Part shown: in pieces, positions 13,571-49,946 of the stretch
Layout of the letters: each line of letters starts with the position of its first letter
Position numbering within the stretch: position 1 is the first letter of the stretch
Assembly (NCBI GenBank): GCA_036563645.1
Contig: DATCMA010000056.1
Span: forward strand, 9,898-73,897
Direction of reading: 5' to 3'
Source of the DNA: Micromonospora sp.
GTDB taxonomy: Bacteria; Actinomycetota; Actinomycetes; Mycobacteriales; Micromonosporaceae
DNA length: 64,000 bases
The notes under the pieces: generated by a model
Told to the model about the DNA's origin: nothing
The model's input: the letters and a program-made list of their open reading frames with translations, nothing else
Database searches by the model: none
Translations under genes and position numbers: made by a program

Positions 13571-13581
13571 TGGACTCCCTT

Positions 13582-17984: not shown

Positions 17985-18000
17985 TAGTCACGGAGGCACG

Positions 18001-18889: not shown

Positions 18890-20620
18890 GTGGTGCTCTC
18901 CACTCGGCCGCGGCGACCAACTGACCTCGGCCCGGCCACAGGGGACGACCGGACGACGGGGCGTCCCCGCCATCCGTCCACCAGCGACAAATCCTCCGTA
19001 GAGGATCTCCCGACGCGGCGGCGCGGGAGAAGCAAGCTCGCCACGGCACTGGCCGCAGGGCTGGTCGTGGCCGCCGCCCTCACCCCCCATCAGCTCGACC
19101 AGCTCACCCCCGCCGCGATGCTGCGGATTCCGTTGGAAGGCCTCCTCGCCGTCGCCGTCCTGCTCGCGCTCCCGCCGCGGGCGCGGCGGGTGGCGGCGGT
19201 CGCGCTCGGCGCGCTCCTCAGTCTCCTGGTCGTCGTGAAGCTCGCCGACCTCGGCTTCGCCACGGCGCTCGGGCGGCCGTTCCACGTGCTCTTTGACTGG
19301 GTCCTCCTCGACGACGCCGTGGGCTTCGTCGCCACCTCCTTCGGCCGCACCGCCGCGATCGTCGCGGTCGGGGTCACCGTGCTCCTCCTGCTCACCCTGC
19401 CCGTGGCGCTCATCGCCGCGGTGCTGCGGCTGTCCCGCGTGGTCGCCCAGCGCCGCGCCGCGGCGACCAGAGCGGTGGCGGCGCTGACGGCCCTGTGGGT
19501 CGTCTGCGCGGCGTTCGACGTCCGCATCGTCCCGGCGGTGCCGATCGCCGACACCCACGCCACCGACCTCGCCGCCGCGCACCTGCGTCAGGTGCCCGAG
19601 GGTTTGCGGGACCGGGACCGGTTCGCCACCGAACTCGTCAACGATCCGTTCCGATACACCCCGGGCGAGGAGCTCCTCACCGCGCTGCGCGGCAAGGACG
19701 TCCTGTTCGTCTTCATCGAAAGCTACGGACGGAACGCGGTCGAGGCTCCCGAGTTCGCCCCCGCGATCGGCGCTGTCCTCGACGAGGGGTATCGCCGGCT
19801 CCAGGCCGCCGGATACACCGCCCGAAGCGCCTTCCTCACCTCGTCGACCATCGGAGGGGCGAGCTGGCTCGCCCACGACACGCTGTTCTCCGGGCTGTGG
19901 ATCGACAGCGAGCAGCGCCACCGCGCGCTCCTCGCCAGCGACCGGCTGACACTACACAAGGCGTTTCGGCGCGCGAACTGGGAGACCGTCGGGGTGATGC
20001 CCGCGGTCACGCACGACTGGCCCGAGGGCAAGTTCTTCGGCTACCAGCGGTTCTACGACAGCCGCCGGCTCGGCTACCGCGGGCCGACCTTCGCCTACGC
20101 CCCCGTCCCCGACCAGTTCACGCTCGCCGCGTTCCACCGCCTGGAGCGCGCCCGGCGCGACCGCGGCCCCCTGATGGCCGAGATCGACCTCGTCTCCAGC
20201 CACTCGCCGTGGACCGTGCTTCCCCGCATGCTGGAGTGGTCGGAGGTCGGGGACGGTGCGGTGTACCACCAGTCCCGGGTCGTCACTCAGCGGGACAAGC
20301 GGGGGGAGACCGCGCGGCAGGCGCGTGACGCCTACCGCCAGACCATCGAGTACTCCCTCCGCTGTCTGATCTCCTATGTGGAGACGTACGGGGACGACAA
20401 CCTCGTGGTCGTGTTCCTCGGCGACCACCAACCCTCGCCGCTCATCACCGGACCGAACCCCAGCCGGGACGTGCCGATCGCGATCCTGGCGCGGGACCCG
20501 GCGGTGATTGACCGGATCGCCGACTGGGGGTGGCAGGACGGGCTGCGGCCCGGGCCCCACGCGCCGGTGTGGCGCATGGACGCCTTCCGCGACCGGTTCC
20601 TCACCGCCTTCAGCTCCTAG
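18890..20620 (+). CDS. membrane-anchored alkaline-phosphatase-superfamily (sulfatase / LtaS-EptA-like) protein
   Basis: N-terminal multi-TM region, then an extracytoplasmic domain ..VLFVFIESYGR..TSSTIGGASWLAHDTLFSG..VVFLGDHQP.. Assigned by architecture and motif recall. Confidence 0.65.
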   Translation: MVLSTRPRRPTDLGPATGDDRTTGRPRHPSTSDKSSVEDLPTRRRGRSKLATALAAGLVVAAALTPHQLDQLTPAAMLRIPLEGLLAVAVLLALPPRARRVAAVALGALLSLLVVVKLADLGFATALGRPFHVLFDWVLLDDAVGFVATSFGRTAAIVAVGVTVLLLLTLPVALIAAVLRLSRVVAQRRAAATRAVAALTALWVVCAAFDVRIVPAVPIADTHATDLAAAHLRQVPEGLRDRDRFATELVNDPFRYTPGEELLTALRGKDVLFVFIESYGRNAVEAPEFAPAIGAVLDEGYRRLQAAGYTARSAFLTSSTIGGASWLAHDTLFSGLWIDSEQRHRALLASDRLTLHKAFRRANWETVGVMPAVTHDWPEGKFFGYQRFYDSRRLGYRGPTFAYAPVPDQFTLAAFHRLERARRDRGPLMAEIDLVSSHSPWTVLPRMLEWSEVGDGAVYHQSRVVTQRDKRGETARQARDAYRQTIEYSLRCLISYVETYGDDNLVVVFLGDHQPSPLITGPNPSRDVPIAILARDPAVIDRIADWGWQDGLRPGPHAPVWRMDAFRDRFLTAFSS

Positions 20621-33295: not shown

Positions 33296-34296
33296 TCGGA
33301 GAGACCGCCACCGCCACCGTGACCGCCAGCACGGACCGCGCGAGCGTCCTGCGCGTGGACGGCCTCACGGTCCGCTTCCGGATCCGCGACGGAATCGTCC
33401 ACGCGGTGACGGACCTCAGCCTGACCCTCCATCGGGGCGAACTGCTCGCCGTCGTCGGCGAGTCCGGCTGCGGGAAGTCGGTGCTCGCGCACACGCTGCT
33501 CGGTCTGCTGCCGGCGAACGCCGCCGTGTCCGGACACGCCTACCTCCAGGTGTCGCCCGACACCGCCCCCATCGACGTGATCCACTGCGGGGAGCGACGC
33601 CTTGCCCGAGACATCCGGGGTCGCCAGCTCGGTCTCGTCCCCCAAAGCCCGGCCACCGCGCTCACGCCGGTCCGCACCGGCCGACGGCTGCTCGAGGAGA
33701 CCTTGCGCGCCCACGGTTCTCCCCGGCACGAGGCCGCTCACCAGGCGGAGCGGCTGGCCCGCGAGGTCGGCCTCGACCCCGCCGATCTCGATCGGTATCC
33801 GTTCGAACTCTCCGGCGGCATGGCCCAGCGCCTCGCCACCGCGCTCGCCCTCGCCCCCGATCCCGCGGTGCTGATCGCCGACGAACCGACCACCGGCCTC
33901 GACCGCCCGCTCGTCGACCACACCCTCGACGTGCTGCGGCGGCGCTGTGACGCCGGCTACGCGGTCCTGCTGATCACCCACGATCTCCGCGCCGCCCGCC
34001 GGGTCGCCGACACCGTCGCCGTCATGTACGCCAGTCGGATCGTCGAACGTCAACCGGTGGACCGCTTCTTCACCGCCCCCGCCCACCCCTACAGCGCCGC
34101 CCTCCTCGACGCGCTCCCCGAGCGCACCTTCCGTCCCATCCCTGGTCACCCACCGATGCTGACCGCGCTGCCGGACGGCTGCGCCTACGCGCCGCGCTGC
34201 CCGCGGGCAACGGCGCGCTGCGCACGCCAGCCGGAGGTCACCACCACCGAGTCGGGCGCGGTCGCCTGTCACCGTCCCCGAGAGGAGGCCGCGTGA
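33292..34296 (+). CDS. ABC transporter ATP-binding protein (DppD/OppD-like)
   Basis: Walker A GESGCGKS, signature LSGGMAQR, Walker B VLIADEPTTGLD. C-terminal oligopeptide-type extension with Cys cluster. Confidence 0.9.
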   Translation: MIGETATATVTASTDRASVLRVDGLTVRFRIRDGIVHAVTDLSLTLHRGELLAVVGESGCGKSVLAHTLLGLLPANAAVSGHAYLQVSPDTAPIDVIHCGERRLARDIRGRQLGLVPQSPATALTPVRTGRRLLEETLRAHGSPRHEAAHQAERLAREVGLDPADLDRYPFELSGGMAQRLATALALAPDPAVLIADEPTTGLDRPLVDHTLDVLRRRCDAGYAVLLITHDLRAARRVADTVAVMYASRIVERQPVDRFFTAPAHPYSAALLDALPERTFRPIPGHPPMLTALPDGCAYAPRCPRATARCARQPEVTTTESGAVACHRPREEAA

Positions 34297-34982
34297 GCGA
34301 CGTCCGCGGCTTGGCGGCCGAACACGTCACGGTGTCGTTCGACGGCACACCCGTGCTGACCGACGTGACGCTGCGCATCGCGCGCGGCGAGACCGTTGGG
34401 CTGCGCGGCGCCTCCGGGAGCGGGAAATCCACGTTGGCGCGGGTCCTCGCCTTCCTGCACTCACCGGATCGTGGTCACGTCAGCCTCGACGGCACCCCGA
34501 TCATCGGCGCGCGCTTCCGCGTGCCCCCGCAGATCCGCACCCGCGTCGCGTTGCTGTTCCAAAGCCCTCGCGCCGCCGCCGACCCCCGCCTGCGCCTCGT
34601 CGACCTCATCGCCGAGCCCGTGCGCGCCACCGGCGCGGCGCGCCAGGAGGCCCGACACCGGGCACGCGACCTCGCCGACCGGGTCGGGCTCACCCCCGAC
34701 CTCCTCGACCGGCGTCCGCATGAGGTCAGCGACGGCCAACTCCAGCGCGCCTGTCTCGCCCGGGCACTCGCCCAGCAGCCTGACTACCTCCTGTGCGACG
34801 AGGCCACCGCCATGCTGGACGCCTCCACACAGGCCCAGCTCGCCTCGGTCATCATCGACTACCAACGGCACCGCGACGCCGGCGTGCTGCTCATCTCCCA
34901 CGACCCCGCCTTGCTGGCGCGGTGGGCGGATCGGGTCGTCGACATCGCCGACGGTCGACTCCTCGCCCCGGCGCCGCGGTAG
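34293..34982 (+). CDS. ABC transporter ATP-binding protein (DppF/OppF-like)
   Basis: Walker A GASGSGKS, signature VSDGQLQR, Walker B YLLCDEATAMLD. Overlaps the previous stop. Confidence 0.9.
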   Translation: MSDVRGLAAEHVTVSFDGTPVLTDVTLRIARGETVGLRGASGSGKSTLARVLAFLHSPDRGHVSLDGTPIIGARFRVPPQIRTRVALLFQSPRAAADPRLRLVDLIAEPVRATGAARQEARHRARDLADRVGLTPDLLDRRPHEVSDGQLQRACLARALAQQPDYLLCDEATAMLDASTQAQLASVIIDYQRHRDAGVLLISHDPALLARWADRVVDIADGRLLAPAPR

Positions 34983-35112
34983 GGAGCCGGGCGCGCGGGC
35001 CGCGCTATTCTGGCGGCGTTCCGCTTCTCCATCCACGTCGACCGACGCAGGCGATTAACGGAATACCGCAATTGATTCACGAGGTGAACGGCGCCACGTT
35101 ATCGGGGATCGA

Positions 35113-35130
35113 CCATTTCCCAAGAAATGG
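35113..35130. promoter_or_regulatory. inverted repeat CCATTTC-CCAA-GAAATGG upstream of the copper operon
   Basis: Perfect 7-nt arms in the lower-GC spacer, about 85-120 nt before the PCuAC start. Confidence 0.3.
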
Positions 35131-35213
35131 ACGAGAAGAATTCTCCGTGAGATCGACCACATATCGGCATTCCCAGGGAACCAGCTGCGAATAGCCGGCG
35201 ACTAACTCGGCGG

Positions 35214-35846
35214 ATGCACGCAACAAACCCGCGAGCCTTCGGAGCGTTCATGCGTAAGCGAATGACGCGTCCCGCACGCCGGACGCCTCAGCCCTGCACG
35301 ATCACCCTGGCGGCGAGCGCCGCGGCGGCCCTGCTCCTGCTCGGCGTACCGGGGTGCAGTGCGGGGGACTCGGGGGCCGCCTCCCCGACCCCGACCCCCT
35401 CGGCCACGTCGAGCAGCAGCTTCGCCATCGAGGATCCCTGGGTCAAAGCGGCTGACGAGGGCATGACCGCCGCCTTCGGCACGCTGGTCAACCGCGGTGA
35501 CCGCGATGTCCGCGTGGTGGGCGCGACGTGTGACGTGGCGCGCGTCGAGATGCACACGATGGCGATGCAAGGCGGCACGATGGTCATGAAGAACGAGCCC
35601 AACGGCTTCACGGTCAAGGCCGGTGGGACGCACCGTCTGGAGCCAGGCGGCGACCACCTCATGCTCATCGACATCACCAAGCCGATCCGCGCCGGCGACA
35701 CCATCGCGTGCACGCTCACCCTCGACGACGACCGAACCGTCGACTTCACCGCGGTGGCCAAGCCCTTCACCGGCGCCGAAGAGCAGTACGACCCGGACGC
35801 GCCCGACTCCGAGCACGACGCGAACACGCACAATGGCGGACACTGA
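35214..35846 (+). CDS. copper chaperone PCu(A)C (ECuC-like) lipoprotein
   Basis: Lipobox LLGVPGCSAG. Cu(I) motif region ..VEMHTMAMQGGTMVM..GGDHLMLIDI.. (H/M ligands, HxM). Alternative start ATG 35250. Confidence 0.85.
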   Translation: MHATNPRAFGAFMRKRMTRPARRTPQPCTITLAASAAAALLLLGVPGCSAGDSGAASPTPTPSATSSSSFAIEDPWVKAADEGMTAAFGTLVNRGDRDVRVVGATCDVARVEMHTMAMQGGTMVMKNEPNGFTVKAGGTHRLEPGGDHLMLIDITKPIRAGDTIACTLTLDDDRTVDFTAVAKPFTGAEEQYDPDAPDSEHDANTHNGGH

Positions 35847-37080
35847 CCCGACAACCGACTCCGCGGCCCAGCGGCCCACGATGAGCCGCCGCCGGTTGCT
35901 CACCGGTGGCGCGCTCGCCGCCGGTGGCGCCCTCGCCGGGGCAGGGCTCACCTGGGGCGTGGCGGATCGCGAGCCGCCAGCGGGCACCGCTGACCCGGTC
36001 TCCTTCGGCGAGCAGGTGGAGCCGTTCTACGGTCCGCACCAAGCCGGCATCGCCACGCCGGCGCAGGCCCACGCGTCGTTCGTCGCCTTCGACCTCCTGC
36101 CGACCGTCGACCGCGCCGCGCTGGGCCGGCTGATGCGGCTGTGGACCGACGACGCGGCCCGGCTCACCCAAGGGCAACCGCCGTTGGCCGACACCGAGCC
36201 GGAACTCGCCCTCCTGCCCGCCCGGCTGACGATCACCTTTGGCTTCGGCCCGGGCCTGTTGCGGGCCGCGGGGCGCAGCGACCAGTGGCCGGAGGCGATC
36301 GGCTCCCTCCCCTCGTTCTCCGTCGACCGGCTCCAGCCGAATTGGTCCGGCGGTGACCTGCTCATTCAAATCTGCGCGGACGATCCGGTCACGGTCAGCC
36401 ACGCGCAGCGGATGATGATCAAGGACGCTCGCCCGTTCGCGACGGTCCGCTGGATTCAACAGGGTTTCCTCCACGGTCGCGGGGTCCGGGGCGACGGGCA
36501 GACGCCTCGCAACCTGCTCGGCCAGCTCGACGGCACGACCAACCCCAAACCCGGAACACCCGAGTTCGACGCGGCGGTCTGGGTGTCGGACGGGCCGGAG
36601 TGGCTGCGCGGCGGCTCGGCGCTGGTGCTGCGCCGGATCCGGCTCGACCTCGACGACTGGGATCGGCTCGGACGGGCGGAGCGGGAGTACGTCCTCGGCC
36701 GGCGACTCGACACCGGGGCTCCGCTGACCGGCCAGCGGGAGGACGATCCGCCGGACTTCACCGCCACCGACGAGTCGGGCCTCTACGTGATCCCTGAGTT
36801 CTCGCACATTCGGCGGGCGCACGTCGCGGACCCGCGGCTGCGCATGCTGCGCCGGTTCTACAACTACGAGCTAGCCCCGGCCACCGGCGGCCCTCCGGAG
36901 GCTGGCATGATTTTCGCGGCGTACCAGGCGAACGTGCAGCGCCAGTTCGTGCCAGTCCAACGGAAGCTCGCCGAGGCGGATCTCTTGAACAAATGGACGA
37001 TTCCTATCGGGTCGGCGGTGTTCGCCATCCCGCCAGGCTGCGAACCCGGCGGGTGGATTGGGGAGCGACTGTTGGCATGA
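35833..37080 (+). CDS. Tat-exported Dyp-type peroxidase (EfeB/DtpA-like)
   Basis: Twin-arginine leader MSRRRLLTGGALAAGGALAGAG. ..FYGPHQAGIATP.. and ..RNLLGQLDGTTNP..HIRRAH.. 14-nt overlap with the PCuAC stop. Confidence 0.9.
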   Translation: MADTDPTTDSAAQRPTMSRRRLLTGGALAAGGALAGAGLTWGVADREPPAGTADPVSFGEQVEPFYGPHQAGIATPAQAHASFVAFDLLPTVDRAALGRLMRLWTDDAARLTQGQPPLADTEPELALLPARLTITFGFGPGLLRAAGRSDQWPEAIGSLPSFSVDRLQPNWSGGDLLIQICADDPVTVSHAQRMMIKDARPFATVRWIQQGFLHGRGVRGDGQTPRNLLGQLDGTTNPKPGTPEFDAAVWVSDGPEWLRGGSALVLRRIRLDLDDWDRLGRAEREYVLGRRLDTGAPLTGQREDDPPDFTATDESGLYVIPEFSHIRRAHVADPRLRMLRRFYNYELAPATGGPPEAGMIFAAYQANVQRQFVPVQRKLAEADLLNKWTIPIGSAVFAIPPGCEPGGWIGERLLA

Positions 37081-37673
37081 GCGTGACTGACCGTCGACGG
37101 CGTCCCCGACACCCGTGGCGCCTGCTCGCCACCGCTCTCGCGGCGACCGTGCTCGCCGTGCTCGTCCCCACGGCACCGGCCGCCGCGCACAACCAGCTCA
37201 TCGACACCGCCCCGGCCAAGGACGCCGTCCTCGACGAGCCCCCGGCCGAGGTGGCGCTGGAGTTCGTCGAGCGGCTGGACCCGACGTACACCACCATCGT
37301 GGTGACCGACGCGCAGCGGCGGACCGTCGCCACGAGCGCGCCGGAGATCTCGGGCGCGCGGGGCGTCGTGCGGTTCACCGAACCACTGGCCCCGGGCACG
37401 TACACGGTCGCCTACCGGGTGGTGTCCCTCGACGGGCACCCCGTGCAAGGCTCCTTCCGCTTCACCGTGGCCGGGGACGCGCCAGCGGCGACCACCGCGC
37501 CCGTCGCCACGCCGACCACGCCCGATCCGACCGCGACGCCCGCCACCGCGGCCGAGGAGCGAGAGGCGAGCCGGGGTGTGGCGATCGCCGTGGCCGTGGG
37601 CGTCGGGGTGGTGGCGCTCGCCGCCCTGGCCGGCGTGCTCGCGCGGCGGCGGAGTGGGAACGGTCAGCGATGA
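37077..37673 (+). CDS. copC: CopC-domain copper-binding protein with C-terminal membrane anchor
   Basis: Signal ..PTAPAAA|HNQLIDTAPA puts His at mature position 1. ..YRVVSLDGHPVQGSFRFTV.. Pro/Thr linker and a TM helix. ATGA overlap with the DyP stop. Confidence 0.9.
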   Translation: MSVTDRRRRPRHPWRLLATALAATVLAVLVPTAPAAAHNQLIDTAPAKDAVLDEPPAEVALEFVERLDPTYTTIVVTDAQRRTVATSAPEISGARGVVRFTEPLAPGTYTVAYRVVSLDGHPVQGSFRFTVAGDAPAATTAPVATPTTPDPTATPATAAEEREASRGVAIAVAVGVGVVALAALAGVLARRRSGNGQR

Positions 37674-39856: not shown

Positions 39857-40810
39857 ATGAAATACCTTCCGTTGAACGACGGGTCAGGCACCCGAGTAAG
39901 CAGCATCTGCCTCGGGGCTATGCCATTCGGCACCACCGTCGACGAAAAGACGTCCTTCGCGATCCTGGACCGCTTTGTCGACGCCGGCGGCACCACCATC
40001 GACACCGCGAACTGCTATTCGTTCTGGGTGCCCGGCGGCAAGGGCGGAGAGAGTGAGACGGTGCTCGGCCGGTGGCTGGCGAGCCGTGGGGGCCGCGACC
40101 GACTGGTGCTCGCCTCCAAGGTCGGCTCAGGGCTCGACGCGAACGGCCGCCCGGAAGGGCTGTCCGCGCCGGTCATCCGGGAGCAGTTGGCGGGCTCGCT
40201 GCGCCGGTTGGGCACCGACTACCTCGACATCTACTACGCCCACCGAGAGGACCGCACCACCCCTGACGAGGAGACGCTCGCAGCCTTCCACGAGGCGGTG
40301 CAGGCCGGCACCGTGCGGTCGCTCGGCGCCAGCAACCACGCTTCGTGGCGGCTCGCGGAGACGCGCGCGCTTGCGGCGGCCAAGGGGTGGACGCCGTACA
40401 GCGTGGTCCAACAGCGCTACTCGTACCTGCTGCCTCGCCCCGCCACCACGCTGCCCGAAGGCGGGCACGTCCACGCCACGGACGAGCTGCTCGACTACGT
40501 CCGCACCCACAAGCTGACGCTCTTCGCCTACAGCACCCTGCTGTGGGGCACCTACTCCCGGCCGGACAAGCCGCTGCCTGAGCACTACGACCACCCCGGC
40601 ACCCACCGGCGGCTGCGGATCCTGGAGGAGGTCGCCAAGGAGCTCGGTGCGACCGTCATCCAGGTGGTGTTGGCCTGGCTGATCGGCGGGGACCCGCCGA
40701 TCGTGCCGATCGTCGGGGTGAGCTCGGTCGCCCAGCTCGACGAGGTGCTCGGCGCGGTCGACCTGGAGCTGCCGAGCGACCTGCGCAAGCGGCTCGACGA
40801 GACGGCCTGA
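39857..40810 (+). CDS. aldo/keto reductase
   Basis: ..SSICLGAMPFG..DAGGTTIDTANCY..LDIYYAHRED..LGASNH.. GGGAGGA before the ATG. Confidence 0.9.
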   Translation: MKYLPLNDGSGTRVSSICLGAMPFGTTVDEKTSFAILDRFVDAGGTTIDTANCYSFWVPGGKGGESETVLGRWLASRGGRDRLVLASKVGSGLDANGRPEGLSAPVIREQLAGSLRRLGTDYLDIYYAHREDRTTPDEETLAAFHEAVQAGTVRSLGASNHASWRLAETRALAAAKGWTPYSVVQQRYSYLLPRPATTLPEGGHVHATDELLDYVRTHKLTLFAYSTLLWGTYSRPDKPLPEHYDHPGTHRRLRILEEVAKELGATVIQVVLAWLIGGDPPIVPIVGVSSVAQLDEVLGAVDLELPSDLRKRLDETA

Positions 40811-40910: not shown

Positions 40911-42053
40911 CTACGTCCGGTGTCCCGTGTCGGTGTCGGCCTGCGCCGACACCGACACGGCCACCACTTGCCCCCAGTGGTCCGAGAGCCCGTGGCTGGG
41001 GACCATGCGGTACTCGTGAACCCGCACGGGACCAGCGGTGAACGACCAATCCAGTCTCCACAGTGGATGGCTAGCCGGCCAGGAGGCGAGGTAGAGCTTC
41101 CCACTGGCGGGCAAGGCGTCTCGGAGGCGTGCGCCGAACTCGCGCAGCTCCCCCATCGCCGCGGTGGCGTTGAAATCGCCGGAGACCACCGTCGGTGCGG
41201 GGTTGCGAGCCAAGTCGGCGCGCAACGCGCGGTACAGGGCTTGTCGACGGTCCTCCTGAGATCGCATGAACTGGTAGAAGTCGGCCCGCCGCGGATCCAT
41301 CGTGATGTCCAGCTGCACCGGAACGTGCACGTTGTACACCGACAGCACCTGCCCACCGAGGTCGAGATCGGTCCGCAGGGCCTTGTAGCGGTAGTAGTCG
41401 GGGAAGTCGGTATCCGCGGGCGGACCGCCGACCGCCGGATCGGACAGGTAGGGCAGGTTGTCCACCGGGAGGCTGCGCACGACGGGGAACCGGGACATGG
41501 TGAGCAGCTCGCCGATGGCGACGACGTGGAAGTCGGGGAAGCGGCGGCGCAGCTCCTCCCGGTGGTCGACCGGTACCGGCCGGTGCCGGGCGAGGTCCCA
41601 CCCGACGTGCTCTTGCAGCAGGTAGACGTCCGCCCGCTGCTCGGCGAGGAACCGGTAGAAGCGCTCCAGATCGTCGCCGTCCGCCCAGTACTCGGTGTTC
41701 CAGGAGAAGATCCGGATGGCCCCGGGTGGGGCGGCGGTGGCCGCCCCACCCGACAGTGCCGCGAGGTTCAACCCCGACAGGTGGGCCCCGACCACCGCGC
41801 AGCCGAGCGCCGCGGCGGCGACACGGCCGCGCACCGGCCGGGCGAGCGGGGCGAGCGCCGCGAGGAGCGCCGGCACCGCCAGGAACACCAGCGGCGGTAC
41901 CAACTCCATCGGGCGCCACCACCAGTAGCGGCCGGTCAGCAGGAGGAACAGCGCCAGGGACACCGTCCACCCGGCGGCGAGGCCGACGAGGATCCGGGTA
42001 CGCACCGGCCAGCGCGCCCGACGTTCCCTAGTGGAGTGTGCCGTACCGCTCAT
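40911..42053 (-). CDS. membrane-anchored endonuclease/exonuclease/phosphatase (EEP) family protein
   Basis: N-terminal TM segments, then ..IRIFSWNTEYW..VYLLQEH.. ..GDFNAT.. ..LSDHWG.. ATGA overlap with the GT2 stop. Confidence 0.8.
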   Translation of the reverse strand: MSGTAHSTRERRARWPVRTRILVGLAAGWTVSLALFLLLTGRYWWWRPMELVPPLVFLAVPALLAALAPLARPVRGRVAAAALGCAVVGAHLSGLNLAALSGGAATAAPPGAIRIFSWNTEYWADGDDLERFYRFLAEQRADVYLLQEHVGWDLARHRPVPVDHREELRRRFPDFHVVAIGELLTMSRFPVVRSLPVDNLPYLSDPAVGGPPADTDFPDYYRYKALRTDLDLGGQVLSVYNVHVPVQLDITMDPRRADFYQFMRSQEDRRQALYRALRADLARNPAPTVVSGDFNATAAMGELREFGARLRDALPASGKLYLASWPASHPLWRLDWSFTAGPVRVHEYRMVPSHGLSDHWGQVVAVSVSAQADTDTGHRT

Positions 42054-43090
42054 GCCGCCACCCGCTCCACGGTTCGGCCGGCCAGCACCGGCCCCTCATA
42101 CGGCTCGTACAGCCGGCGGAAGCTCGGCGAGACCAGCCACTGCAGGGCACCCACCGCGGCACCGGCGGCGATCGCCACATTGGTGAGGAAGGCGAAGCCG
42201 GTGAACAGCGCCAGGAAGGCCGGTCCCTTCTTCCGCAGGACGTACCGGTACATCGCGGGATCACCGGTCAACGACAGCCCGAACAGCGCCACGGGCAGCG
42301 CGATCCAGGCCGGGTGCAGTGCGACCAGGGGTGTTGTGAGGAGGGCCGCGAGCGCCGCGGCCGCCGCCGACGAGCGGGTGCCGGTCTCAAACCCCTTGGC
42401 GAAGCGGCGTCGCTGAGCGAACAGCGGTACGCGCAGCCGAGCCCGCCGGAACAGCTTGCGCAGCAAGGGACCGAGTCGGTCGTCGTCATCGTGTCGCCCC
42501 CGCACCGCCGCGGTGACCATGATCGGGTAGCGGGCGGACATCCGCTCGCCGTAGTCCACCTCCTCGGTCTGCCTCAGCCTCGGGTTGAACGGCCCGACCG
42601 TGTCGAAGACGTGCCGGGGAATGGCGGTCAACGAGGAGAACAAGAAGCTGACCTCGCCGAGGGAGTCCATCCGCCAGCAGTACGCCTGAAGCACCCGGCA
42701 CTCCTCCACGACGCTGTCGCGGTAGAGCGGCTCATCCTCGTAGATGCCACACACCGCCCCGTACTCCGGGTGAGCGCGGAGCTGCTCGACCGCCTTCTCC
42801 ACCGCGTCCGGGTTGAGCGCCACGTCGGAGTCGACGAAGAACAAGATCTCCCCGCGGGCGGCCGCGGCGCCGATGTTGCGCGCCACCGCCACACCACTGT
42901 TCCGCGGTGTCTGCAGCACGCGCACATTGCGCTGTCGCGCGATCTCCACGGAGTTGTCGGTGCTGTGGTCGTCGACGACGATGACCTCCAGCGGCTGGTA
43001 GGTCTGCGCGAGCGCGGCGTCGATGCACGCCCCGAGGGACGCGCCGTAGTTGTAGTTGGGGATGATCACTGAGACGAGCGGGTTGGTCAT
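42050..43090 (-). CDS. glycosyltransferase family 2 with C-terminal TM region
   Basis: VSVIIPNYNYGASLGACIDAALAQTYQPLEVIVVDDHSTDNS..FFVDSDV.. (DxD). RBS GGAAAGGA. Confidence 0.9.
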   Translation of the reverse strand: MTNPLVSVIIPNYNYGASLGACIDAALAQTYQPLEVIVVDDHSTDNSVEIARQRNVRVLQTPRNSGVAVARNIGAAAARGEILFFVDSDVALNPDAVEKAVEQLRAHPEYGAVCGIYEDEPLYRDSVVEECRVLQAYCWRMDSLGEVSFLFSSLTAIPRHVFDTVGPFNPRLRQTEEVDYGERMSARYPIMVTAAVRGRHDDDDRLGPLLRKLFRRARLRVPLFAQRRRFAKGFETGTRSSAAAAALAALLTTPLVALHPAWIALPVALFGLSLTGDPAMYRYVLRKKGPAFLALFTGFAFLTNVAIAAGAAVGALQWLVSPSFRRLYEPYEGPVLAGRTVERVAA

Positions 43091-43123
43091 GGCGAAGTCC
43101 TTTCCACGGGGAACGCGAGCGCG

Positions 43124-44080
43124 TTAGCTGAGGATCAGCGGGAGCTGGGTGGCCGCGAGCGTGCCGGCCAGCAAGGCGCCCCACAGCAGGGAGTTGACCC
43201 GCAGCGCGGGGTCGTGCAGCAGCAGGCGCGTGGGGTCGCCGCCGTCCCCGTCGACGAGCAGCACCTGGAGGTAGCGGGCGAGCGCGAAGAGCGCGAAGGG
43301 CGCGGAGCCGAGCAGCGCCAGGGTCAGGTATGGGCCGTCGAGCCGCTGCTGGAGGTGGAGGAAGAAGGACACCACGGCGAGCACCGCGCACAGCACGGCC
43401 AGGTGGTCGAGGTACTGGGTGGAGTAGCCGCGCAGCGAGGGGCGGTGCGCGGCACCCCCGACGGTCACCTCGTGCCGCCGCTTGCCGAGCAGGAACAGCA
43501 GGCACACCGCCAACACGGCGATCAGCAACCACGGGCCGACCGGAGCGTCGACCACGAGGTAGCCCTGCACCACCCGGAGCACGAAGCCGAAGGCGACGAC
43601 GAACACGTCCACCAGGGGCAGGTGCTTGAGCCGGCGGCTGTAGACGAGGTTCAGCGCGAGGTAGACGGCGACCGGCCAGCACACCGCCGCCGGCACCGGG
43701 CCGAGGACCGCGGCCGCCACCAGCAGGGTGACCAGCAGCGCGGCGATGGCGGACGCCACCGGCACGCTGATGCGTCCCGCGGCGATCGGGCGGTGTCGTT
43801 TGGTGGGATGATTCCGGTCGCGGTGCCGGTCGGCGATGTCGTTGCAGACATAGACCACAGTCGAGGCAAGGGTGAAGAGCAGCACCGCCCACGCCAGTCG
43901 CACCGCGAGCCCCGGCGCGATGACCGAGACGTCGAGGAGCGCGAGCGGAACGACGAGCAGGTTCTTCACCCACTGGTGCGGTCGGATCAAGGCGATGACG
44001 TCCCGCCACACGCGGCGGGGCCGCGCCGGCGCGAGCGGCGGCGCGCTCGCCGCGACGCGGGTTTCCGCAGTGATAGTCAC
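43124..44080 (-). CDS. UbiA-family prenyl-phosphate phosphoribosyltransferase (decaprenyl-phosphate 5-phosphoribosyltransferase-like)
   Basis: ..IRPHQWVKNLLVVPLAL.. and ..YVCNDIADRHRDRNHPTKRHRPIAAGRIS.. (NDxxDxxxD plus KRxRP). GTG 44080 follows GGAGG at 6 nt. The track start 44137 is TTG. Confidence 0.85.
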   Translation of the reverse strand: MTITAETRVAASAPPLAPARPRRVWRDVIALIRPHQWVKNLLVVPLALLDVSVIAPGLAVRLAWAVLLFTLASTVVYVCNDIADRHRDRNHPTKRHRPIAAGRISVPVASAIAALLVTLLVAAAVLGPVPAAVCWPVAVYLALNLVYSRRLKHLPLVDVFVVAFGFVLRVVQGYLVVDAPVGPWLLIAVLAVCLLFLLGKRRHEVTVGGAAHRPSLRGYSTQYLDHLAVLCAVLAVVSFFLHLQQRLDGPYLTLALLGSAPFALFALARYLQVLLVDGDGGDPTRLLLHDPALRVNSLLWGALLAGTLAATQLPLILS

Positions 44081-44133
44081 GAGATACCTCCGGAAGGATG
44101 GGGTGCCGCACCGCGCACGCGGTGCGGCACCGG

Positions 44134-45171
44134 TCAAAACACGGCCTTGGCGAGGGCGAGCACGCCCTGTTTCCAGGGCTCACGGCTGGTCCGCCCCGTC
44201 GACGCGGCACTGGTCACCCGGTGGTGCCGCCACCACTCGTAGGTGCGCAGGATGGCGTCCCGGTTGGTGTAGCGCGGGGTCCACCCCAAGACGTCGCGTG
44301 CCTTGTCGGTGCTGACGTAGGAGTCAGCGAGCAGCTTGTGCAGCAGCCGTCCGTACACAGGGGACAGACGCAGCCGGCGGAGCAGGTCGAGGATGGCGAC
44401 CGCGGGCCGCGCGGGGATGGAGACGACGCGTTTGCCGTGCCCGGCCGCGTCGAGCACCGCTTGGAAGTCCTCGCGGAGGGTGCCGAACTCGGCGGCGGCG
44501 ATGTTGAACGTGTCGTTGGCCCGCTCGGCGGGAGCAGTGAGTACGACCTGCACCGCCGCGACCAGGTCCTCCACCGCGAGCCACTGGATACGGACGTCAC
44601 CGCGGCCGAGCACGGGGAAGTTGCGCCCTTCCTCCGCCCATTCGAAGAGCATCGCGAACAAGCCCATGCGCCCTGGGCCGAGGAACGTCTTCGGTCGCAG
44701 GATCGGCACGCACATCCCTCGGCCGCGGAATTCCTCCGCGATCTCCTCGGCGCTGGCCTTCGCGCGGCTGTACGGATCCACCGGCCGACGCGGGTAGTCC
44801 TCGGTGGTGGGCACCACGTCGGGCAGCCCGTACACGGCGGTGGAGGAGATGTGCACCAGCCGCGGTACGCCGCAGCGCGCGGCCGCCTGGAACACCGTGC
44901 GGGTGCCCCCGACGATGATCGACCGGATCTCGTCCTCGGGATAGCTCGGCAGGGCGGCCGCGGTGTGCACCACCGCGGCGCAGCCGGCGAGGGCGGATTG
45001 GACACGTCGCTCGTCGCGGACGTCGGTGCTGATGTACTCCACCCCGGCGATCGGCTCCTCCGGCGGGCGGATATCGAGGCTGCGCACCTGCCACCCGTCG
45101 GCGGCCAACGCGCGCACCAGGTTCCCGCCGAGCATGCCGCTGCCGCCGGTGACGGCTACCGTCCTCACCAC
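44134..45171 (-). CDS. NAD-dependent epimerase/dehydratase (extended SDR)
   Basis: VAVTGGSGMLGGNLV (GxxGxxG), catalytic YSRAK. GTG start overlaps the aminotransferase stop. Confidence 0.9.
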   Translation of the reverse strand: MVRTVAVTGGSGMLGGNLVRALAADGWQVRSLDIRPPEEPIAGVEYISTDVRDERRVQSALAGCAAVVHTAAALPSYPEDEIRSIIVGGTRTVFQAAARCGVPRLVHISSTAVYGLPDVVPTTEDYPRRPVDPYSRAKASAEEIAEEFRGRGMCVPILRPKTFLGPGRMGLFAMLFEWAEEGRNFPVLGRGDVRIQWLAVEDLVAAVQVVLTAPAERANDTFNIAAAEFGTLREDFQAVLDAAGHGKRVVSIPARPAVAILDLLRRLRLSPVYGRLLHKLLADSYVSTDKARDVLGWTPRYTNRDAILRTYEWWRHHRVTSAASTGRTSREPWKQGVLALAKAVF

Positions 45172-46593
45172 AGCGAGCTCACCTTCTCCCGCACGAACCG
45201 CGTCACCAGCCGCGGCAGGCCCTGGGCGAGGGTGGCGTCCAGCGCGTCGAGGAAACGCTCGACCTCGGGTGGGCCGGCCACCAGCGGCGGACCCACCACC
45301 AGCGGGTTCTTGCCGTTGAGCGTGTAGTAGGTGTAGATGTCGTGGTCGCGGTAGAGGGCGTTGACCACCGCGCAGGTCACCAGCTTGATGCCGAAGTTCG
45401 GGTCACGGGTGAGCCCGGCGGGGACGAGCTTGGCGAGCAGGTCCAGCACGGGTGAGCTGGTGAGGAAGACACCCCAGAGGGCGCCCGCGCCGCGCACGTC
45501 GGTGACGAGGTCGGAGTGCTCCTTGGCGATCCGGGCGAGCCCGGGGGCGAGCACCCGCTCGATATCCCGCGCCCGGGCCGGGAAGTCCTCCTCGATCGCC
45601 ACGTTGATCGCCTCGATGGCGGTCGCGGTCTCCTCGCCGAAGCCGTAGTAGGTGGTGCTGGTGCTCTGGAGAAGCGCGTCGGTGAGGTTGTCGTAGGCCT
45701 TCGTGAAGATCGGCCGACGGGCGATGTACGCCGAGATGGAGCTCTTGCCACCACCGAACGACTTGGAGGTGGTGAGCACGTCGGGGACGAGCCCGGGATA
45801 GCGCATGAAATAGAAGAGGGTGCCGGTCTTCCCCCACCCGGTGTAGATCTCGTCGAAGATGAGGACGATGTCCTCTTTGGTGCACAGCTCCCGTAGACCG
45901 CGGAGGAACTCCTCGGAGCACCAGCGCATGGTGGACGCGCTGAACGGCTCCACCAAAATGGCGTAGACGTCGCAGCGGCCCTTCCGATCCCGCGCCGCCT
46001 CCACCTTGGCGCGCAGGTCATCGAGGTCGTCATACCGGTAGCGGACCACGCCCGGGATGCCGGGGAACTTGAACTGGTGCTGCGCGCTCGCGGTCAGGCT
46101 GCCGGAGCCGAGGAGCTTGCCGTGGAAGCTGATGTCGCTGTGCAGAATCGTGTTGCGCCGGCCGCCGTGGTACTTGTACGCCAGCTTGACCGCGCCCTCG
46201 ACCGCTTCGGAGCCGGAGTTGGGGAAGAACGACATGTCGAGGTCGCCGGGGAGCACCGCGGCGAGGTTGTGGGAGAGCGCCGCGAGGTACGGCGAGAAGT
46301 AGGGTCTTGTGCACCTCCATCCGGCGCCGTTCGGCGAATCGACGCCGGGCGGCCAAGATCCGCGGGTGGTTGTGCCCGTGGTTGAGGACGCCGACGCCAC
46401 CGGTGAAGTCGAGGATCTTCCGTCCGTCCTTGGTGTAGATGTAGGCGCCTTCGGCGTGGTCGACGAGGTCGTGACCGAAGCCGAAAGAGGTCATGAGGTT
46501 GACCTGGCTCTTGTTGATGTACTTCCGGTACAGGTCGTGCACCTGCTCGACGGTGAGCTGCTCGGCTTCCTCGAGGGTGATGAGCGAGGACAT
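45165..46593 (-). pseudogene. class-III (PLP) aminotransferase, interrupted by an apparent +1 nt indel near 46302-46305
   Basis: N-part from ATG 46593 (GGGAGG RBS): MSSLITLEE..GGVGVLNHGHNHPRILAARRRFAERRRMEVHKT. Then another frame: YFSPYLAALSHNLAAVLPGDLDMSFFPNSGSEAVEGAVKLA..FDEIYTGWGKTG..TSKSFGGG.. Dropping one G of GGG 46302-46304 joins ..HKT-YFSPY.. Confidence 0.8.
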
Positions 46594-46654
46594 TGAGGTA
46601 CCTCCCTGACTGTCTGCTGTGGATTTCCGATTCGGACGTACGGTTGGGGGCGCG

Positions 46655-47604
46655 TCACGCGGCCACGGCCGCTTCGCGCGGTCGCCGCAGGGGCGAGAAG
46701 CGGTTTGCGGTGAGGAGCAGGACGCCCACTGACCAGAGCACCTCAGCGAGCGTGCTGACAATCCGGCTGGCGATGGCGGTGGCACCGCCGCTGGCCACGG
46801 CAGCACCACGGTGAGGGCCGCGAGGAGCACCAGCTCCCGTACGCCGGCCCCATCCGGCACGACGATCGCCAGCGTGCCGGCGGCGGCCGCCAAGGCGTAG
46901 CCCCCGACCGCAGCCGGCCCCGCGGCCAGGGGATCCGCGCCGAGGAGCACCGCGATGACCCACACGTGCGCGCCGGAGAGCACCCAGGACACCGTCTGCA
47001 GGACGATCGACCGGCGCAGCGCGGCCGGATCGGCCAGGGGTTCGGGGTCTGGGCGGCGAGTCAACCGCGCCGCGGCCCGGGCGAGTCGGTTGACCAGGTG
47101 GGGCCGCGCCACCAGGAGCGCCACGACGAGGAGCGACGGCGCGACCCATATCGGGGTCGGTCCCGGCAGGACCGGCGCCACCAGCAGGCCGACCGCGCCG
47201 GCGGTGACGAAGACGACCACGAGGTTGAGCACGTAGGTCCCGAGCATCCGCGCGCGCGGCACGCCCAGCCGCTGCCCCATCGCGATCTGGGCCACCAACC
47301 CCCACAGGCGCCCGGGGACGAACTTGCCGAGGAACCCGACGACGAACATCCGCGCCCCCGCGCGCCGGGGAACCGGTGACCCGAGGGCGGCCAGGGTGAA
47401 GGTCCACGACCGCATGCCACAGCGCAGACCGATCGCGGTGACGCCTACGGCGACGAGCAGGGCCGGCAGCGTGCTGAGGCGGAGCATGCGGGCCAGTGCG
47501 TGCCAGTCCTGGTCGCCCATCGCCGCGGCGATCCCCGCGATCACCGCGACGCCGAAGACGGTGGCCGCGACGCGGACCGCCCACCCCCGCCACTGTGGAC
47601 TCAT
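46655..47604 (-). pseudogene. flippase-like / LPG-synthase-TM-type membrane protein, apparent -1 nt indel near 46798-46803
   Basis: N-part MSPQWRGW..PDGAGVRELVLLAALTVVLP in one frame. Family-like C-terminus VASGGATAIASRIVSTLAEVLWSVGVLLLTANRF..* in another, with stop at 46655. The span is not divisible by 3. The C-end parallels paralog 13582..14547. ATGA overlap with the GT2 stop. Confidence 0.75.
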
Positions 47605-48605
47605 CGGGTACCTACCGGTCGGCTCAGCGGACGGACCGAGACCTGCCGCAGGCGGCGGACCGCGCCCACGGCCACCCCGGCGGCCGTGGCGAGCTGGGTC
47701 ACCAGGTGCGCCACGAAGAAGGCCGGGAGGAAGGACCAGCCCCGTTCCCGGCGGACGAAGGAGAACAGCCCGGGATCGGCGACCGCGAAGAGCGCCACGA
47801 ACGCGAGGGGGACGACGGCCAGCGCGGGCCCGACGGCGATGAGAGGCAGGGTCGCGACTGCGGCGGTGCCGCCGATGAGCCCAGCGGCGGGGTTGACCAC
47901 GACCCCTCCGTCCGCCAGCCGGTGTCGTCCGGCGAACCCGGCGAGCGGAAGCGAGCGCCGGTACTGCTCCCGCACCATGGCGATGAAGCCGGCGCAGTCG
48001 TCGTGCCGGCCGACGACGGTGTCCGTCAGCCGGATCGTCGTCACCCGCGCGAGCCGGTCGCTGTATTCGACGTCCTCGGCGTCCCGCAGGGCCTCGTTGA
48101 ACGGACCCGCGGCGAAGAACACCGACCGGCGGATCGCCGCCAGGGCGAAGATGGCGGTGCGGACCCGGCCGACGCTGCGCCGCCGCCACCAGTGCGCGTG
48201 CAGGACCTTGTAGTGCTCAACCCAGCCGTCGTCGAACAGCGGACGGGTGTCGTAGGTGCCGTGGACGCACCCGCAGGAGGGGTCGTCGCGGAGAATGCGC
48301 ACGGCGTTGGCGATCGCGTCGGGACGCAGCGCCACGTCCGAGTCGACGAAGAACAGCACCTCTCCCCGGGCCTCCCGGGCGCCGCGGTTGCGCGCCGCGG
48401 AGACACCTCGGTTGCCGCCAGTCGTGATGAGGCGGCACGGATAGCGGGCGGCGATCTTTCGCGATTCGTCGGTGGACCCATCATCGACCACGATCACCTC
48501 ATACGGCGCGTATGTCTGCGCGAAGATGGCGTCCAGGCACGCGCCGAGGGTTTTCGCGTAGTTGTAGTTGGGAACGATCACCGACACCGTCGGTTCATGG
48601 CCCAT
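47601..48605 (-). CDS. glycosyltransferase family 2 (paralog of 42050..43090)
   Basis: VSVIVPNYNYAKTLGACLDAIFAQTYAPYEVIVVDDGSTDES..FFVDSDV.. ATG 48605 after AAGGGAGAAGG. Confidence 0.9.
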   Translation of the reverse strand: MGHEPTVSVIVPNYNYAKTLGACLDAIFAQTYAPYEVIVVDDGSTDESRKIAARYPCRLITTGGNRGVSAARNRGAREARGEVLFFVDSDVALRPDAIANAVRILRDDPSCGCVHGTYDTRPLFDDGWVEHYKVLHAHWWRRRSVGRVRTAIFALAAIRRSVFFAAGPFNEALRDAEDVEYSDRLARVTTIRLTDTVVGRHDDCAGFIAMVREQYRRSLPLAGFAGRHRLADGGVVVNPAAGLIGGTAAVATLPLIAVGPALAVVPLAFVALFAVADPGLFSFVRRERGWSFLPAFFVAHLVTQLATAAGVAVGAVRRLRQVSVRPLSRPVGTR

Positions 48606-48849: not shown

Positions 48850-48892
48850 AAAAAACGAAAACTCCCCGGCCCGTGCGGTACCGGGGAGTTTT
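48850..48892 (-). terminator. rho-independent terminator (minus strand)
   Basis: aaaactccccgg / ccggggagtttt, a 12-bp perfect stem at 48858-48892. On the minus strand it is followed by cgTTTTTT. Lies 12 nt after the stop of ORF 48904..49089. Confidence 0.7.
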
Positions 48893-48903
48893 CGTGAGAT
48901 CTG

Positions 48904-49089
48904 CTATGTGAGTCGCATCAGGGGAATGAGCATCGGGGGATAGTTGTCCGCGATTCCCGTAACCAGTCGGTCGAACGCGGTTCCCGGCGGCTTTCCACCA
49001 CCCCTTCGGTGCCGTCGCTCCTCACGACCCCGTCCCCTATCCGGGATCGTCGCCAATTGACTTTCGGCGACCGCGTTGCTTTTCTGCAT
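48904..49089 (-). CDS. small hypothetical protein, 61 aa (or a leadered small RNA)
   Basis: AGGAG 6 nt before ATG 49089 and a strong terminator just after the stop. Third-position G/C is only about two thirds by my hand count, far below neighbouring genes. Arg/Gly-rich middle. No family recognised. Confidence 0.4.
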   Translation of the reverse strand: MQKSNAVAESQLATIPDRGRGREERRHRRGGGKPPGTAFDRLVTGIADNYPPMLIPLMRLT

Positions 49090-49223: not shown

Positions 49224-49946
49224 CTACACGTCGGCCATGCGCAATTCGGCGAGGTCGCTCCATCGGCCGGCCTGCGCGGCCAGGCCGAGTTTGCGGTACG
49301 CCTCCACGAGCTCCTCACACGCGAACCAGTCGTAGGGGTCGATCTCGAGCGCCCGCTCTGACCACTCGATGACCGCCCACGGGTCGCCGGCGGCGCGCGC
49401 CCGCTCGATCAAGAACTGCACGGCGCGCAGCGCCGCGCTGCGTAACCGCTCCCGGTGCTCGAGGATCCACGGCGCGTCCTCGGCGGGCAGCAGGGTGCCC
49501 CCGTAGTGGTGAAGTGCCCGCCGATAGTGCGCGCCGGCGGCGTCCAGATCCCGGGCGCCGCGCGCCGCGTCGCCGGCACGCATCGCGTGCAGGAAGTCGT
49601 CGACGTCGGTGCGAAGGCCGTCCCCGGTCAACACGTACCCGTCGCGGGTACAGCGCAACTCGACCGGCGCCCCCGCGTCCACGAGGGGGCGCAGCACCCG
49701 TCGCACCCCGTGGACCGCGGCCTTGACCGATGTCGCTCCTGCCGGCGGTACCAGGTGTGGCCACAGCTCAGCCCGCAGGCGGTCGCGATGCACCGGGCGA
49801 TCGCGGTGCAACACGAGGTATTGGAAGAGTGCCCGGGACCTGCCCGCCCGCCACGCGGTGACCGGTCGGCCCTGCACCGTTAACCGGAAGCCGCCCAACA
49901 GGACGGCGTACGCCGACACGTTGTCGCGGAAAACGACGGGGTTCAC
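49224..49946 (-). CDS. small SARP-family regulator (OmpR-type winged helix + BTAD)
   Basis: ..YAVLLGGFRLTVQGRPVTAWRAGRSRALFQYLVLHRDRPVHRDRLRAELWP.. then BTAD ..DVDDFLHAMRAGD..YRRALHHYGGTLLP.. Confidence 0.85.
   Translation of the reverse strand: MNPVVFRDNVSAYAVLLGGFRLTVQGRPVTAWRAGRSRALFQYLVLHRDRPVHRDRLRAELWPHLVPPAGATSVKAAVHGVRRVLRPLVDAGAPVELRCTRDGYVLTGDGLRTDVDDFLHAMRAGDAARGARDLDAAGAHYRRALHHYGGTLLPAEDAPWILEHRERLRSAALRAVQFLIERARAAGDPWAVIEWSERALEIDPYDWFACEELVEAYRKLGLAAQAGRWSDLAELRMADV

Follow-up and report, generated by a model that had tools for sequence, protein, structure and literature searches.

Introduction

Known polyprenyl-phosphoribose pathways yield neutral pentofuranoses (arabinose, ribose or xylose), and the mycobacterial pathway is a validated drug target. 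The latter, which provides decaprenyl-phospho-arabinose in Corynebacteriales, involves the UbiA-fold enzyme Rv3806c, the phosphatase Rv3807c and the DprE1/DprE2 pair. Three-component pentofuranose systems combine a polyprenyl phosphoribose synthase with a MATE flippase and a GT-C glycosyltransferase of family GT136, optionally supplemented with an epimerase of the short-chain dehydrogenase/reductase (SDR) type (Kelly et al. 2024, PMC11127046). Two further systems are related in their logic: the Arn pathway (ArnA, B, C, D, E/F and T), which forms undecaprenyl-phospho-4-amino-4-deoxy-L-arabinose from UDP-glucuronate, and MprF, in which a lysyl-phosphatidylglycerol synthase is combined with an LPG_synthase_TM flippase exporting its cationic lipid product. 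Here, we describe a seven-gene operon in a 64,000-nucleotide stretch of Micromonospora sp. DNA (referred to as the window), which is interpreted, with a probability of about 0.42, as a pathway that is primed with phosphoribosyl pyrophosphate (PRPP) and assembles a lipid-linked glycan, possibly containing an aminated pentose, at the inner face of the membrane.

With the decaprenyl-phospho-arabinose pathway, the operon shares a UbiA-type enzyme with the same predicted PRPP, Mg2+ and lipid-phosphate ligands, a separate candidate for the membrane phosphatase and, as proposed here, a redox modification of lipid-linked ribose via a keto intermediate. It differs in encoding an NAD-type SDR and a class-III aminotransferase (AT) in place of DprE1/DprE2, a phosphatase candidate with an EEP instead of a PAP2 fold, and no Emb/Aft-type GT-C enzyme nearby. 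In common with the three-component systems, it would start from PRPP-derived polyprenyl-phospho-ribofuranose and use a cytoplasmic auxiliary SDR and perhaps a dedicated flippase, but the flippase candidate is of the UPF0104/MprF type rather than a MATE or SMR protein, the phosphatase candidate is a separate EEP protein rather than a fused HAD domain, an AT and one to three cytoplasmic glycosyltransferases are added, and a linked GT-C gene is lacking. The Arn pathway has a comparable sequence of SDR-type oxidation, transamination, a GT2 enzyme with C-terminal transmembrane (TM) helices and a flippase. However, the sugar would here be derived from PRPP, the AT is a class-III enzyme whereas ArnB belongs to the DegT family, scores on the ArnC model are far below its cut-off, and neither a formyl cycle nor ArnT is found. 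MprF, finally, has the same PF03706 domain and the same coupling or fusion of a cytoplasmic synthase to a flippase that exports its lipid, although the partner in the operon is a GT2 enzyme and not an aminoacyl-phosphatidylglycerol synthase. The literature searched, including that on the Streptomyces cwg operon, described neither this gene set nor a lipid-linked aminopentose derived from PRPP, and the cluster is apparently unstudied.

Results

Gene content and the UbiA-family enzyme

Annotation with Pfam and NCBIfam identified a run of seven tightly packed genes on the minus strand (Table 1), with order, content and first and last codons exactly as stated in an earlier reading of the same DNA (the original prediction). 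Three of the gene pairs overlap, with 4 nt shared between the GT2a and flippase genes as well as between the GT2b and EEP genes, and 7 nt between the SDR gene and the end of the AT gene including its stop codon; the remaining gaps measure 33-61 nt. The UbiA reading frame stays open up to 44137. The G+C content of the window (about 71%) has an actinomycete-looking composition.

Table 1. Position and annotation of the operon and the elements flanking it in the window.
Feature	Position	Strand	Length and evidence
GT2a	47601-48605	-	334 aa; Pfam Glycos_transf_2, 1.9e-33
UPF0104/LPG_synthase_TM flippase-like membrane protein	46655-47604	-	316 aa when intact; Pfam PF03706
Class-III (omega-type) pyridoxal phosphate (PLP)-dependent AT	45165-46593	-	475 aa when intact; Pfam Aminotran_3, PF00202
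Extended SDR	44134-45171	-	345 aa; Pfam Epimerase, 1.2e-38
UbiA-family phosphoribosyltransferase-like enzyme	43124-44080	-	318 aa; Pfam UbiA, 4e-21
GT2b	42050-43090	-	346 aa; Pfam Glycos_transf_2, 1.7e-35
Membrane EEP protein	40911-42053	-	380 aa; Pfam Exo_endo_phos, 2.7e-14
Aldo-keto reductase (AKR)	39857-40810	+	317 aa; Pfam Aldo_ket_red, 1.7e-59
SARP-type regulator (Trans_reg_C + BTAD)	49224-49946	-	Pfam BTAD, 1.7e-11
Putative intrinsic terminator	48850-48895	-	RNA fold -31.5 kcal/mol, z -5.7, followed by a U-run
61-codon open reading frame (ORF) (MQKSNAVAESQLATIPDRGRGREERRHRRGGG...)	48904-49089	-	Good ribosome-binding site

The UbiA-family protein carries the motifs NDIADRHRD and HPTKRHRPIAAG, corresponding to the NDxxDxxxD and KRHRP-type motifs quoted in the original prediction. 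On the NCBIfam models for decaprenylphosphoryl-5-phosphoribose (DPPR) synthase, it reached 199.7 (NF008978; cut-off 207), 184.1 (NF008977; cut-off 234) and 138.9 bits (NF008976; cut-off 474), and on a related HAD-UbiA fusion model 151.8 bits, compared to at most 50 bits on prenyltransferase families outside this group. It could be aligned to the cryo-EM structure of Rv3806c (8j8j) with an E-value of 6e-36, at an identity of about 32-37%. The roles of the ligand residues of Rv3806c have been established by mutagenesis (PMC10994848). Pairwise alignment showed that the pyrophosphate-binding residues R22, K87, R90, K143 and Y138, the Mg2+ ligands N73 and D77 (N99 and D103 in the new protein), the 5'-phosphate ligands K28 and Y70 and the lipid-phosphate ligands K28 and K191 (K58 and K219) are retained. 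Two ligands are exchanged, with Q135 replaced by N and Y157 by F, the latter as in some mycobacteria.

Homologues with 36-38% identity from other phyla are encoded next to DprE1-like, DprE2-like and GT-C genes or next to a PRPP synthetase gene. In a rough neighbour-joining tree, the actinomycete proteins formed a clade of their own, approximately equidistant from Rv3806c and the environmental enzymes. Model scores, ligand residues and tree thus all agree with the kinship to Rv3806c-type enzymes, rather than to unrelated prenyltransferases, on which the original prediction was built. As judged from its sequence, the protein is a member of the PRPP-dependent polyprenyl-phosphate phosphoribosyltransferase subfamily, in which it represents a separate clade. 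Like Rv3806c, it would transfer 5-phosphoribose from PRPP to polyprenyl phosphate (or another lipid phosphate), and this predicted first step of the pathway is well supported.

Conservation of the gene set

A scan of one genome per species for the AT retrieved 314 loci, the 80 best of which were fetched. Co-occurrence was then counted in the 62 species loci, found via the AT, that had at least 8 kb of flanking sequence on both sides. An EEP gene and at least one glycosyltransferase gene were present in all 62 loci (GT2 in 60, GT4 in 25), followed by the genes for the SDR (61 loci; directly after the AT gene in 58), the UbiA-family enzyme (60) and the UPF0104 protein (57). An AKR gene adjoined the cluster in 43 loci, lying on the same strand in Streptomyces, and the AT, SDR and UbiA genes were contiguous in that order in 40. 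The hosts included Micromonospora, Solwaraspora, Actinoplanes, Streptomyces (including the S. griseus group), Actinomadura, Actinoallomurus, Nonomuraea, Sphaerisporangium, Actinokineospora and Saccharothrix; a separate look-up of the genomic context added Thermobispora.

AT orthologues with 72-84% identity were found across very many actinomycetes. Chance is far from sufficient to explain an arrangement whose gene set is found again in dozens of species. Conservation of the core is strong, extending over roughly 300 species-representative genomes from at least five families, and the co-occurrence survey suggested in the original prediction has thus revealed a conserved module. The AT protein was 97% identical where a strain's DNA was about 10% divergent, which indicates purifying selection. 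The entire module is present twice in Solwaraspora sp. WMMB335 (L028, L048) and Streptomyces sp. ST2-7A (L018, L084), and the copies differ in their accessory glycosyltransferases.

The extent of this conservation also bears on the fate of the product. Instead of a structural envelope component, the operon could provide a specialised metabolite, that is, a secreted or membrane-bound phosphoglycolipid under the control of SARP or LuxR regulators. A SARP-type regulator is indeed encoded directly upstream, in the window as well as in related members of the Micromonosporaceae, the neighbours of the cluster in other genera include AfsR-like or LuxR regulators and MMPL or MFS exporters, and the set of glycosyltransferases varies by lineage between GT2 and GT4. 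However, conservation in about 300 genomes from at least five families, with an AT identity of 73-84% in the 80 best loci, is more typical of envelope physiology, and the chemistry involved would be that of the pathway preferred here, with a difference only in product fate. A role in specialised metabolism is regarded as very unlikely.

SDR and aminotransferase

The SDR contains the motifs TGGSGMLG and S..YSRAK (matching the S..YxxxK triad) and an NAD-type Asp33 at the end of strand beta-2. A function as a 4,6-dehydratase was ruled out, since STAVYG is found in place of STDEVYG and the dehydratase D-E pair is absent. Lipid-acting SDRs, namely OleD (over its full length) and HpnA, are among the top NCBIfam ranks. 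An assignment to hopanoid synthesis (HpnA/B/I/O) was rejected, with scores far under the cut-offs and no hopanoid genes nearby. When a profile of SDR orthologues was used, GDP- and UDP-sugar 4-epimerases were the best solved relatives.

The Aminotran_3 match of the AT is split over two reading frames in the window. Its closest solved structures are YgjG and PigE (E about 1e-48), the PLP-binding lysine is kept in the sequence TTSKSFGGG, and the enzyme is predicted to belong to the omega-amine branch together with these two proteins. On their models, the frameshift-truncated ORF of the window scored 180.4 (YgjG; cut-off 612) and 185.8 bits (PigE; cut-off 850). In the loci examined, AT orthologues were encoded exclusively in this cluster, and the AT was the most conserved protein of the module. 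Given the scores below cut-off and the constant context, it can be placed outside the housekeeping amino-acid and polyamine clades, as the original prediction had supposed.

In the pathway proposed here, the NAD-dependent SDR would oxidise a hydroxyl group of the lipid-linked ribose to a ketone or aldehyde, which the translationally coupled AT would then aminate to give a lipid-phospho-aminopentose, so that both enzymes would take the role held by DprE1/DprE2 in the arabinose pathway. We infer this step from the adjacency of the SDR and AT genes, the replacement of DprE1/DprE2 and the precedent of Citrobacter, in which genetic evidence has shown that an SDR (ORF13) encoded beside a polyprenyl phosphoribose synthase converts undecaprenyl-phospho-ribofuranose into undecaprenyl-phospho-xylofuranose (PMC11127046). 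The AKR may reduce or epimerise a second position. The sequences do not discriminate between C2, C3 and C5 as the aminated position. In line with the original prediction, no DprE1-type (FAD_binding_4/ALO) or DprE2 gene was detected among the window ORFs scanned, where the region 34293-37673 was covered solely by gene predictions made on a near-identical contig. The neighbourhoods of the 80 loci, which were not screened for DprE1/DprE2 specifically, contained no recurrent gene family without a label.

Alternatively, the SDR could be a C2 or C3 epimerase like ORF13 of Citrobacter and provide polyprenyl-phospho-xylofuranose or -arabinofuranose as a neutral donor for the cell wall, with the AT and the AKR acting separately, for example on an amino-alcohol or polyamine substituent. 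The published case of an SDR epimerase beside a polyprenyl phosphoribose synthase (PMC11127046) and the epimerase-like active-site motif of the SDR are consistent with this scheme. It is difficult to reconcile with the AT, which shows the highest conservation of all proteins of the module and whose gene is immediately followed by that of the SDR in 58 of the 62 loci, and with the lack of a GT-C partner nearby. Walls of Micromonosporaceae are classically reported to contain xylose and arabinose, as a neutral donor would suggest, yet the cluster is found just as well in Streptomyces and Streptosporangiaceae, which are not known to have this wall chemotype. Taken together, a neutral pentofuranose donor appears quite improbable.

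Glycosyltransferases and flippase-like protein

GT2a and GT2b both consist of an N-terminal GT-A domain without a signal sequence and two C-terminal TM helices. The best NCBIfam matches of GT2a were EpsD and MftF-type proteins, all under cut-off, and the closest solved structures of GT2b were chondroitin and heparosan synthases, GalT1 and PglI. On the ArnC model PRK10714, the two proteins obtained 24.5-28.9 bits (cut-off 529), and similar values (25-29 bits) were reached on the DPMS model. A function as polyprenyl-phospho-sugar synthases of the DPMS/GtrB/ArnC type is unsupported at such scores, though the architecture is similar. Both proteins rather resemble cytoplasmic glycan extenders that use nucleoside diphosphate (NDP)-sugars, and in the proposed pathway they (or GT4 enzymes in some lineages) would extend the lipid-linked intermediate by one or more sugars taken from nucleotide sugars. 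Because their GT-A domains are predicted to be cytoplasmic, they should be unable to install a flipped lipid-linked donor outside the cell, a reaction for which a GT-C enzyme would be needed. This topology and the extender-like character speak against the original prediction, in which the GT2 enzymes had been given that task.

The UPF0104 protein matched PF03706 with 58.4 bits in the window frame (ORF 46030-48189) and with 66.0 bits (gathering threshold 33.4; 5.2e-18) in the intact copy of the near-identical contig L003. In four genomes (L060, L088, L042, L036), a GT2 domain is fused to a UPF0104 domain. Based on these fusions and the 4-nt overlap of the corresponding genes, GT2a and the UPF0104 protein are likely to form a synthase-exporter unit as in MprF, and movement of the product to the outer leaflet by the UPF0104 protein, acting as a unit with GT2a, would be the next step of the pathway, a role supported by the gene fusions. 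Large membrane ORFs within 10 kb of the AT gene encoded GT2-UPF0104 fusions, MMPL, MFS, KdpA and CstA proteins and a 640-680-aa type without a Pfam match.

The same genes could also be divided as in the Arn pathway. In this case, the SDR and the AT would make an NDP-amino-sugar, a GT2 enzyme would load it onto the lipid carrier or onto lipid-linked ribose and the UPF0104 protein would flip the product, while the UbiA-family enzyme and the EEP protein would separately supply neutral polyprenyl-phospho-ribose; the amine would then reside on a hexose or other sugar and not on the PRPP-derived pentose. The SDR, the AT, a GT2 enzyme with two C-terminal TM helices and the flippase indeed parallel ArnA, ArnB, ArnC and ArnEF, GDP- and UDP-sugar 4-epimerases are the best matches of the SDR profile, nucleotide keto-sugars are known substrates of certain class-III aminotransferases (e.g. 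AcbV), and the GT2-flippase fusions fit a synthase-plus-flippase unit. This division is, however, at variance with the contiguity of the AT, SDR and UbiA genes in 40 of the 62 loci and the translational coupling of the first two, with the low GT2 scores on the ArnC and DPMS models, with an SDR that has no dehydratase D-E pair and no accompanying decarboxylase-type domain, and with the prominence of OleD and HpnA in the NCBIfam ranking. We consider it unlikely. All three alternatives described so far keep the transfer of phosphoribose from PRPP to a lipid as the first step.

Membrane-bound EEP protein

The catalytic residues of the EEP protein (N119, E148, H243, D293, N295, D358 and H359) are invariant in 39 homologues. 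Its AlphaFold2 (AF2) model has a mean confidence (pLDDT) of 92.9 and yielded EEP fold matches at a probability of 1.0. These comprised phosphodiesterases (Tdp2, sphingomyelinases) as well as sugar-phosphate monoesterases (Nocturnin and the Bacteroides mannose-6-phosphatase Bt3783), so that the fold search does not discriminate between the two activities. All known phosphoribose-lipid systems have an obligatory phosphatase partner, each from a different fold family, and the occurrence of the EEP gene in 62 of 62 loci is in keeping with such a role.

The protein starts with three TM helices. Across the 39 homologues, Lys and Arg residues accumulate in the N-terminal tail and the second loop but become scarce beyond the third helix, a distribution that predicts an extracytoplasmic catalytic domain. 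If the protein is the 5-phosphatase for which the original prediction made it a candidate, it would thus act after flipping and not before the SDR and AT steps; a cytoplasmic role preceding these enzymes is at odds with the predicted topology. In the last step of the proposed pathway, the outward-facing EEP protein would remove the 5-phosphate or cleave a phosphodiester. This could complete a surface glycolipid or provide a donor on which a transferase encoded elsewhere would draw.

Frameshifts in the window copy

In the window, the Pfam matches for the flippase and the N-terminus of the AT lie in one frame and the remaining AT in another. The underlying changes were mapped by comparison with the metagenome contigs L003, L004 and L005 (99.8% identical) and the metagenome-assembled genome (MAG) contig L001, in which all seven genes are intact and encode proteins of the lengths given in Table 1. 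The window differs from these contigs by exactly two single-base indels in the operon. In the flippase gene, an A is lost at about 46782 (GTGACCACC to GTGCCACC), which replaces the last 40 or so residues. In the AT gene, a C is inserted at 46302/3 (GACCTAC to GACCCTAC), which cuts off residues 1-97 from the remainder of the protein; once repaired, the AT sequence matches protein P0121 with 100% identity. The remaining five genes are intact, three substitutions are the only further differences between the operon and the intact L003 copy, and a scan of the frame-dependent G+C content at third codon positions (GC3) detected no further frame break in the whole 64 kb. The frameshifts mentioned in the original prediction are accordingly real features of the window sequence.

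Programmed frameshifting was ruled out, as near-identical strains have single intact ORFs. General assembly noise is argued against, but not settled, by the clean GC3 scan. The indels are either very recent inactivating mutations or local assembly errors, and they bear on the window copy only, which would lack function if the frameshifts are not due to sequencing errors. A pseudogene cluster that was inactivated recently and has no function in this genome is an explanation whose odds we place just short of even. Two independent 1-bp indels in adjacent genes, the sole frame breaks detected in 64 kb, point in this direction, as does the position of the lost A outside any homopolymer. With only three substitutions relative to L003, inactivation would have to be very recent, or else assembly errors are involved; moreover, the other five genes are intact, and inactivation would apply to this copy and not to the biology of the module.

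One of the reference contigs showed a peculiarity of its own. L001 (QGUG01000222.1), which aligns with the window over 42872-47364, is essentially identical to it from 42872 to about 45400 (2 mismatches), followed by a stretch of about 90% identity through the 5' half of the AT gene and the flippase gene. This sharp mosaic boundary inside the operon suggests inter-strain recombination or a chimeric MAG assembly.

Flanking genes and other features of the window

The strong hairpin upstream of the operon, which follows the 61-codon ORF, was missed by a consensus terminator scan and recovered by RNA folding. It probably sets the seven genes apart from the regulator unit as a transcription unit of their own. 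SARP homologues with 51-53% identity occupy the same upstream position in eight Micromonosporaceae loci, making this protein a candidate regulator of the operon. The near-identical contigs L003 and L004 were the only ones to share the 61-codon ORF that lies between the SARP gene and the operon, and it was not found in other genera; by eye, its first codons are A/T-rich relative to the genome (71% G+C). L004 additionally contains 5.2 kb that are not in the window (L004 172-5376), inserted at about 49926 directly upstream of the SARP gene and encoding an AMP-binding/MbtH protein, a HisKA_3 two-component pair and a second, distantly related UbiA-family protein of 318 aa. On the other side, the AKR gene is convergent with the operon.

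Lineage-specific neighbours of the cluster were observed in other genomes (L073 16481-18823, L060 1485-3647, L046 19335-21413, L069 16614-18608). An Acyl_transf_3-GT2 fusion adjoins it in Phytohabitans, MMPL-family transporters in some Micromonosporaceae and Streptomyces, and the 640-680-aa protein without a Pfam match, which has 12 TM helices, was seen in about eight Streptomyces loci.

Elsewhere in the window, a copper-handling cluster (LpqE-like/Dyp/CopC/CopD) is located at about 35.2-39.7 kb, in which the putative LpqE-like gene has an in-frame deletion of 3 bp (GGG) at 35379 when compared to L003. Another unusual envelope-type cluster spans 12169-20620, where pterin- and riboflavin-type enzymes are mixed with lipid head-group enzymes: its minus strand encodes RibD_C, GTP cyclohydrolase II, UPF0104/LPG_synthase_TM, methyltransferase, GT4, 6-pyruvoyl-tetrahydropterin synthase and Zn-ADH-like proteins, and a CDP-alcohol phosphatidyltransferase and a sulfatase/LtaS-like protein are encoded on the facing plus strand.

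Discussion

Of the lipid-linked aminopentose route put forward in the original prediction, the PRPP-lipid start, the coupling of the SDR and the AT and the conservation of the gene set are borne out by the present analysis, while the amino-pentose itself is still a conjecture, to which we would give somewhat less than an even chance. In its most specific form, the proposal describes an actinomycete route from PRPP to a lipid-linked amino-pentose in which an SDR and a class-III AT replace DprE1/DprE2 and an MprF-type flippase coupled to a GT2 enzyme exports the product, distributed over Streptomyces, Micromonosporaceae, Streptosporangiaceae, Pseudonocardiaceae and Thermomonosporaceae. Stated in this detail, it must be called doubtful.

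Several observations weigh against the preferred interpretation. The UbiA-family protein stays under every NCBIfam equivalog cut-off, and 2 of the 62 loci have no UbiA gene nearby. Adjacency alone is what designates a lipid-linked pentose as the substrate of the SDR and the AT, and the SDR may instead act on an NDP-sugar, given that the solved structures closest to it are those of nucleotide-sugar 4-epimerases. With the EEP domain predicted to be outside, the 5-phosphate would have to be kept during the cytoplasmic steps, or another phosphatase would be required. No GT-C protein or other extracytoplasmic transferase was found among the large multi-TM ORFs within 10 kb of the AT gene in the 80 species loci, although a GT-C enzyme may be encoded elsewhere in the genome, and no aminopentose has been reported from the walls of these organisms in the literature searched. 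In the window itself, moreover, two of the seven genes are frameshifted.

If the interpretation is correct, amination of a lipid-linked pentose would bring both a new sugar and a new type of enzyme logic into bacterial glycobiology and open a new route to a cationic envelope glycoconjugate, with a role analogous to that of 4-amino-4-deoxy-L-arabinose (L-Ara4N), galactosamine (GalN) or lysyl-phosphatidylglycerol. The module is well defined and found in genetically tractable Streptomyces, so that the hypothesis is directly testable. Antibiotic-producing actinomycetes would then possess an unrecognised, possibly cationic, surface component, with potential effects on phage adsorption, on resistance to cationic antimicrobials and on cell-wall chemotaxonomy.

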